Positions 28,747 through 28,942 of a stretch of 64,000 bases of DNA are shown here, one piece after another. The position numbers were made by a program, and so were the translations under genes. The stretch is taken from the NCBI GenBank assembly GCA_020629375.1, contig JAHDDK010000002.1, positions 96,720-160,719 of the forward strand, read 5' to 3'. The notes beneath the pieces are model-generated. The model had not been told where the DNA came from. It ran no database searches and saw only the letters and a list, made by a program, of their open reading frames with translations. The stretch is from Acidimicrobiales bacterium. Its GTDB lineage: Bacteria > Actinomycetota > Acidimicrobiia > Acidimicrobiales > SHLQ01. The stretch's first letter is position 1. The number at the start of each line of letters is the position of its first letter.

Positions 28747-28942
28747 GCATCGATGTTTCGGCGAAGCCGAAACTCGGGTTTGACGGCGCAGCCGTCAATA
28801 CAGCCGACAACTCGGGTGTCTGCCCCTGCAAGTTTCGACCCAAGTCGAAACTTGGGTTCGACGGCGAAGCCGTCGCAACCAGCCATGCTCAGCATCGACG
28901 TTTCGGCAAAGCCGAAACTCGGGTTTCTCGCCAAAGGCGAGA
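28747..28942. repeat. three copies of a ~51-nt two-hairpin module (GTTTCGNC-loop-GNCGAAAC, YTYGGGTT, second short hairpin)
   Basis: Hairpins at 28755-28773/28781-28797, 28832-28851/28859-28875 and 28900-28918/28926-28942. Units 1 and 3 share a 34-nt stretch with 2 mismatches, and stems carry compensatory changes. The array ends 5 nt from the tRNA-Lys 3' end. Confidence 0.75.

Follow-up and report, generated by a model that had tools for sequence, protein, structure and literature searches.

A polar palindromic repeat behind tRNA genes of Acidimicrobiales shares its constant hairpin with the TD-1 and TD-2 motifs of Treponema

Relation to described palindromic elements and to the TD motifs

Small palindromic repeats are common. 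The REP and BIME sequences of enterobacteria and pseudomonads are short, imperfect, bulged extragenic palindromes that form arrays of alternating modules, lie mostly beyond gene 3′ ends, and presumably serve as stem-loops at transcript ends. In all of these respects they resemble an array of hairpin units that fills the spacer between the stop codon of a DUF427 gene and the 3′ end of a tRNA-Lys(UUU) gene in the window (the whole stretch of 64,000 nucleotides analyzed here). Unlike REP/BIME sequences, which have a conserved GTAG foot, the family to which these units belong lacks this foot, has no RAYT gene flanked by copies, keeps a strict orientation to the upstream gene, follows tRNAs at about a third of its loci, numbers from a few to ~60 copies per genome, and carries one hairpin across phyla.

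Rickettsia palindromic elements (RPE) and MITE-like palindromes are likewise small noncoding repeats that also occur in frame within intact open reading frames (ORFs), whereas the units described here are much shorter (about 45 to 60 nt), mostly extragenic, and polar. This comparison found no clear terminal inverted repeats or target duplications in our family, and an outer 8-bp inverted repeat (CGCTTCGC/GCGAAGCG) is present in some subfamily copies. A search for MITE features found no duplication at single copies and no protein-coding partner among ORFs within 2.5 kb. The hairpin-only (“I-shaped”) terminators proposed for high-GC actinobacteria are also GC-rich stem-loops without a U-tract that lie directly behind genes, but terminators would not be expected to have a sequence in common across loci, species, and phyla, as this family does, and a terminator role is putative here. 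A word search of the literature for REP, tRNA, and Actinobacteria together returned nothing relevant.

The TD-1 and TD-2 motifs were reported in 2007 from T. denticola only, as multicopy motifs of unknown function that were both rated as probably RNA (Weinberg et al. 2007, PMC1950547). TD-1 was described 5′ of genes, and the TD motifs show covariation with some disrupted pairs (PMC1950547). Rfam classes TD-1 (RF03155) as cis-regulatory and TD-2 (RF03162) as an sRNA, within clan CL00124. The TD-1 consensus starts with CGAGUUUgccg-loop-cggcAAAC-a-UCG, which is the stem sequence of the constant hairpin of our array together with its bulged purine. On the minus strand of the window, 28751-28776 and 28896-28921 match the hairpin that is shared, GAGUUU-NNNN-loop-NNNN-AAAC, whose bulged A precedes UC. 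The TD motifs further resemble the array in being multicopy, in having variable or modular flanking hairpins, and in covarying. They differ from it in that the flanking hairpins are unrelated, in that the constant hairpin comes first in the TD-1 model whereas the variable hairpin precedes it in Acidimicrobiales, and in their position relative to genes, which was described as 5′ for TD-1 and is 3′, behind tRNAs and ORFs, for the Acidimicrobiales copies.

A cmscan of positions 28000-29600 gave no TD match at E values up to 10, the gathering thresholds of TD-1 and TD-2 not being reached, and Rfam recognized only tRNA in the window and no family at the Clostridiales or Acidimicrobiales copies. A preliminary description of this locus had found no known motif in the array; this stands as far as Rfam scores are concerned and fails for the constant hairpin, which is the 5′ hairpin of TD-1 and TD-2. 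Because this hairpin is shared with the Treponema motifs, we regard the array as a repeat element rather than as an RNA dedicated to regulation. What is new is a polar palindromic repeat that prefers tRNA flanks and is tied to TD-1 and TD-2 by its constant hairpin.

Candidate identities outside the palindromic repeats were rejected. One subfamily, in which a hairpin is followed by TCGGTAAGTG, resembles an RSF1010-type oriT. A MOBQ-type oriT consists of an inverted repeat followed by a nick region, TAAGTGCGCCCT, with the consensus NWACCNNTAAGTGCGCCCTYNN (PMC3832669). The subfamily reads TCGGTAAGTG and then AGCGAAGCG, not CGCCCT, so that the required TAAGTGCGCCCT is absent; the units in the window are without TAAGTG altogether. 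A BLAST search of plasmids gave chance-level matches only, the best being a 24-nt stretch (AGTGAGCGAAGCGAACGA.GTGGG) in the Pseudomonas veronii plasmid pPVG22 (L237:482-505) that is nearly identical to the tRNA-proximal part of one subfamily, at an E value of 0.4. The stretch falls within the loop between the arms GTTATCCAC and GTGGGTAAC of an inverted repeat, in a part of this 5-kb plasmid that has no annotation, and the match may be due to chance. Integron attC sites have outer boxes RYYYAAC ... GTTRRRY, an unpaired spacer, and extrahelical bases, and occur in cassette arrays. The units described here have GTTTC as the 5′ outer and GAAAC as the 3′ outer sequence, the reverse of attC, and gave no Rfam match.

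Structure and covariation of the units

The array comprises three units at 28751-28943, each with a constant and a variable hairpin, and one degenerate partial copy (Table 1). The stems and loops given in the preliminary description, including the double substitution that turns G:C into A:T in unit 2 and a second hairpin in all three units, are confirmed in the sequence, while the distances between unit starts, given there as 80 and 64 nt, measure 77 and 68 nt. The constant stem is 11 bp long, as the foot CGA/TCG (CAA/TTG in unit 2) pairs too, and a single base is bulged in each of units 1 and 3. Its pattern GTTTCGRC-N3-4-GYCGAAAC matches the plus strand at 28755, 28832, and 28900, against 0 matches expected from 100 dinucleotide-preserving shuffles. 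Units 1 and 3 are 77% identical over 73 nt, and the variable hairpins differ by replacement of the whole stem or by substitution of C:G for T:A at its base, with pairing maintained. The predicted fold of the array has an energy of -106.8 kcal/mol on the plus strand (z -6.5 versus shuffles) and -112.1 kcal/mol on the minus strand (z -7.0). A short gene for an RTX-repeat (HemolysinCabind) protein lies directly upstream of tRNA-Lys (29071-29778, minus strand).

Table 1. Features of the array and its flanks, with positions in the window. CM R1, covariance model built from 96 distinct copies.
Feature	Position	Strand	Evidence
DUF427 gene, convergent with the tRNA; stop codon 24 nt before the first unit	28235..28726	+	Pfam PF04248, E 3.7e-29; ORF list
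Unit 1 constant hairpin, most distant from the tRNA; plus strand CGA-T-GTTTCGGC-GAA-GCCGAAAC-TCG; 11-bp stem, bulged base	28751..28776	-	Sequence; CM R1 48.9 bits, window 28745-28782
Unit 1 variable hairpin, TTGACGGC-GCA-GCCGTCAA	28780..28798	-	Sequence; fold
Degenerate partial copy, one constant-hairpin arm and linker (GCCGACAACTCGGGT)	28803..28817	-	Direct repeat family D3; sequence
Unit 2 constant hairpin, CAA-GTTTCGAC-CCAA-GTCGAAAC-TTG; A:T compensatory pair, no bulge; foot CAA/TTG against SGA/TCS in the family	28829..28854	-	Sequence; inverted repeat I3; CM R1 29.7 bits
Unit 2 variable hairpin, CGACGGC-GAA-GCCGTCG	28859..28875	-	Sequence; fold
Unit 3 constant hairpin, CGA-C-GTTTCGGC-AAA-GCCGAAAC-TCG	28896..28921	-	Sequence; CM R1 42.5 bits
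Unit 3 variable hairpin, TTCTCGCC-AAA-GGCGAGAA; 3 nt from the tRNA 3′ end	28925..28943	-	Sequence; fold
tRNA-Lys(UUU), with the array as its immediate 3′ trailer	28947..29021	-	ARAGORN; Rfam tRNA 60.2 bits

Read in the sense of the tRNA, the constant hairpin of the family is SGA-GTTTCGNC-loop-GNCGAAAC-R-TCS, an 11-bp stem with a bulged purine (A or G). Read in the sense of the upstream gene (the minus strand in the window), each unit runs from the variable hairpin through 2 to 4 nt to the constant hairpin, and this gap is kept in 44 of 53 distinct copies. The variable hairpin is specific to the subfamily, with 53 distinct versions. Among the 96 distinct copies in the covariance model, 99.3% of the stem cells are paired; the outer pair 7-33 is CG in 67 copies and GC in 27, and the inner pair 16-23 is GC in 64, AU in 16, and CG in 14, these two being the positions left free by the search patterns. 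None of 500 shuffles equals the observed covariation score, and a set of 112 copies agrees. The existence of a dispersed family with covarying stems, found by whole-genome and cross-genome searches, bears out the earlier proposal that the pairing is under selection.

In the set of 112 copies, sense-strand loops are mostly T-N-C (TTC in 30, TCC in 17, TGC in 15, and TAC in 10), which reads as G-N-A on the opposite strand, and loop length, which sets the spacing of the two half-sites, ranges from 3 to 5 nt. As indicators of the strand of action, wobble pairs in the variable stems are evenly divided (5 G:T versus 6 A:C), and those in the constant stem are 10 A:C versus 3 G:T among copies that are possibly not independent; neither count points firmly to one strand.

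Copies, placement, and distribution

The source assembly (4.41 Mb, 164 contigs, 64.5% G+C) carries the constant hairpin at about ten loci, at least 6 of them directly after tRNA genes. A relaxed palindrome scan (AGTTTY-stem-loop-stem-RAAAC) found 11 matches versus 0 in a reversed-sequence control, all of which adjoin tRNA 3′ ends, namely, those of tRNA-Lys in the window, tRNA-Ile on contig C87, and tRNAs at the edges of contigs C102 and C110. Model R1 identified extra copies on C113, C143, and C158, and also on C11 and C123, where they follow a truncated tRNA and a stop codon, respectively. The search of the genome and its relatives proposed in the preliminary description, which had allowed that there might be no further copies, thus does find them. 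On the short, repeat-like contigs C143 (L239:599-1717) and C158 (L238:1567-2757), a variant unit lies in frame within each of two DUF222 (PF02720) ORFs; it reads GGGAACCC-TTCG-GGTTCC, then A, and then CGAGTTCGAC-TTC-GTCGAAC-ATCG.

Several copies lie within ~150 nt of contig ends (C11:121, C102:66, C110:113050-113145, and C113:87). Repeat arrays in tRNA flanks probably break the assembly of this metagenome-assembled genome (MAG). Contig C110 also holds about ten tRNA genes within 1 kb (105843-106869), including Trp, Tyr, Asn, Met, Lys (twice), Glu, Thr, and Gln, a cluster that looks like a phage- or island-type tRNA array.

Exact copies occur in 6 of the 26 genomes of the genus (control, 0). 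The complete 4.45-Mb genome OZ244202.1, from the same family, has 61 copies at 35 loci (control, 0), and four more long Acidimicrobiales assemblies have 8 to 34 copies. Across the order, the motif is present in 12 of 301 genomes that are at least 85% complete, concentrated in a few families. The family shows what characterizes REP elements in the broad sense, namely, numerous dispersed, extragenic, imperfect palindromes well in excess of chance, with control counts of 0 throughout.

The placement of these copies is strongly polar. Among 71 distinct high-GC loci, 24 follow a co-oriented tRNA and 22 follow the end of a co-oriented ORF, versus 2 after a divergent gene start and none after an antisense tRNA. 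In OZ244202.1, 11 of the 35 loci are co-oriented with a preceding tRNA, and at no fewer than 13 others the element lies 20 to 65 nt beyond the stop codon of an ORF running in its own direction. The element begins one to a few bases past the end of any tRNA that it follows. Copies in the plus and minus orientations are interleaved along the OZ244202.1 chromosome, which indicates that the orientation of the element tracks the local gene and not the replication strand. For small palindromic repeats, a near-absolute orientation behind the upstream gene (46 loci versus 2) is unusual, as are the start of about a third of the loci a few bases from a tRNA 3′ end and a stem sequence common to Acidimicrobiales, Treponema, Clostridiales, and single MAGs of other phyla.

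The array is absent from the tRNA-Lys(UUU) trailers of nine genomes of the same genus, those whose trailers are readable. From this absence and from the presence of the motif in only 12 of the 301 genomes of the order, sequence comparison among relatives shows the array to be a recent gain in this species. The tRNA-Lys genes of relatives are also trailed by hairpins without U-tracts. In most of the eleven genomes in which tRNA-Lys was found near DUF427, it follows that gene co-directionally, and it is inverted here. Among loci L149-L167, the usual spacer between tRNA-Lys and DUF427 in genomes of the genus is ~60 nt, and in the closest relative tRNA-Lys lies about 1.1 kb away. The rearrangement of tRNA-Lys coincides with the presence of the hairpin array. 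Elsewhere, tandem arrays contain 2 to 16 units (16 of 52 nt, 6 of 58 nt, 5 of 75 nt, and others), which often recopy the last 7 to 8 nt of the tRNA.

To survey other phyla, we searched about 185,000 species, each represented by a single genome, for exact matches to the pattern CGAGTTTCGGC-N3-4-GCCGAAAC-RTCG and obtained 109 stretches. The carriers are Acidimicrobiales, unclassified Actinomycetota MAGs, many Treponema, several Clostridiales MAGs, and single MAGs of Solirubrobacterales, Acidobacteria, and Bipolaricaulota; viral contigs gave no match to the exact pattern. A variable hairpin directly precedes the constant one in every group of carriers. The Clostridiales copies lie past stop codons in clusters of hairpin modules and have further compensatory stems, e.g., TTTTGCC/GGCAAAA. 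The Treponema loci found by the exact pattern match Rfam TD-1 and TD-2 at 65 to 91 bits. Many TD-2 copies are embedded, as in-frame blocks of three hairpins, in intact AAA-ATPase/PDDEXK_9 ORFs of Treponema. One such block, classed as an sRNA, lies inside an intact 586-aa AAA-ATPase_like/PDDEXK_9 ORF of a Treponema MAG (L046:2516-4276, minus strand), where the insert of ~36 aa falls just before the GRAD...EFK nuclease motif. ORFs run through the repeat at about 21 Treponema loci.

Proposed role and alternative readings

The identity of the units as members of a REP/MITE-like palindromic family, the first option listed in the preliminary description, is well supported by the dispersed, covarying copies. 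We consider it probable, with real room for doubt, that the array consists of three diverged tandem copies and a remnant of a small nonautonomous REP/MITE-type palindromic repeat that resides in 3′ flanks, in the sense orientation only, and grows in tandem. The low copy number in the source genome (about ten loci) counts against this reading. Such a family would colonize the 3′ flanks of tRNA and protein genes in the sense orientation and would expand locally by tandem duplication. At the locus studied here, the units would be transcribed as the trailer of tRNA-Lys and, on the other strand, as the 3′ untranslated region of DUF427, and the stable stack of stem-loops could act in 3′-end formation or protection and insulate the two convergent genes from each other.

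Judged by sequence alone, the units probably supply stem-loops at 3′ ends, whether for termination without a U-tract, as a block to exonucleases, or as a processing site, since they are placed in the sense orientation behind transcription units, their pairing is preserved, and relatives have plain hairpins in the same position. A terminator or processing stack, another option of the preliminary description, would be the most plausible activity. An activity at 3′ ends would explain why pairing is kept while the loops and the variable stem drift. A consensus terminator scan of 28200-29400 found no canonical hairpin-plus-U-tract terminator on either strand, and only a short and discontinuous U-rich stretch follows the variable hairpin. 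This missing terminator signal, the identity of the stem across phyla, and the bias of the opposite-strand loops to G-N-A or GNRA do not fit a purely structural role. Identity of the stem in distant phyla is more than a structural terminator or protector needs and points to a sequence-specific partner, and with the G-N-A bias a folded antisense or DNA strand would fit at least as well as a sense RNA. Together, these three features leave room for a sequence-specific partner, e.g., an HUH-type enzyme acting on folded DNA.

The form of this idea in which the repeat is of the REP-RAYT type or another HUH substrate, its bulged hairpin folding in single-stranded DNA to be recognized and copied or moved by a Y1/HUH nuclease, nevertheless seems unlikely to us. 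It would account for the conserved stem sequence, the bulged base, and the conserved foot nucleotides, and a conserved enzyme partner would be in keeping with the recurrence of one hairpin in several phyla. In DNA, a G-N-A triloop with a C:G closing pair is very stable, and on the strand opposite to the gene 72 of 112 loops are G-N-A, with GNRA tetraloops in another 10. The source genome also has three Y1_Tnp (PF01797) genes. However, a search allowing 3 mismatches found no copy of the element within 1.5 kb of these genes, and the two are uncorrelated within the genus, where 23 of 26 genomes have Y1_Tnp and 6 of 26 the exact element; a RAYT link is therefore not supported, as the PF01797 genes are neither flanked by copies nor codistributed with the repeat. 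Tracking of the neighboring gene instead of the replication strand also speaks against an HUH substrate, as does the lack of a recurring protein family beside copies: an all-against-all comparison of ORFs within 2.5 kb of the 109 loci found no neighbor gene shared across phyla, and the largest clusters are the Treponema ORFs that run through the repeat itself. The three Y1_Tnp genes are paralogous IS200-like open frames of ~300 aa on contigs C14, C147, and C89 (L145-L147).

A dedicated structured noncoding or cis-regulatory RNA with a specific function beyond its stem-loops, as first proposed for TD-1 and TD-2, strikes us as less plausible still. The stem covaries, the Treponema relatives are classed by Rfam as cis-regulatory and sRNA, and their discoverers considered both likely to be RNA (Weinberg et al. 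2007, PMC1950547), but the array is missing from the orthologous tRNA-Lys locus of relatives, the distribution is patchy, copy number varies with frequent tandem amplification, neighbor genes are mutually unrelated, and copies lie in frame within ORFs of DUF222 here and of PDDEXK_9 in Treponema. Two further readings have very little to recommend them. That an ordinary tRNA terminator hairpin was tripled by slippage, independently of other loci, would suit the similarity of units 1 and 3 and the hairpins without U-tracts behind the tRNA-Lys of relatives, but this purely local event is contradicted by near-identical constant hairpins at other tRNAs of this genome and in many genomes, with control counts of 0. 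A double-stranded operator or partition-type site for a dimeric protein, with GTTTCG and CGAAAC as half-sites, has in its favor the perfectly palindromic arms and a sequence kept across phyla; such a site is equally improbable given half-sites whose spacing varies with loop length, covariation at inner stem positions that a spacer would leave free, a second hairpin at a fixed distance, and placement behind genes instead of at promoters.

A more speculative extension of the repeat-element reading, to which we give some credence but which we think rather doubtful, is that the constant hairpin is the mark of mobile modules that include TD-1 and TD-2, span phyla, and home in a fixed orientation behind tRNA genes and gene-end hairpins through a sequence-specific machinery linked to transcription; if true, a bacterial repeat would thereby select its targets in a new way. 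The family accounts for tRNA-flank arrays in Acidimicrobiales MAGs and probably for several contig breaks. It supplies TD-1 and TD-2, orphans since 2007, with relatives from other phyla and a testable genomic setting. If the hairpins do act in 3′-end formation, the family would provide a portable 3′-end module for high-GC bacteria, whose terminators are poorly understood.
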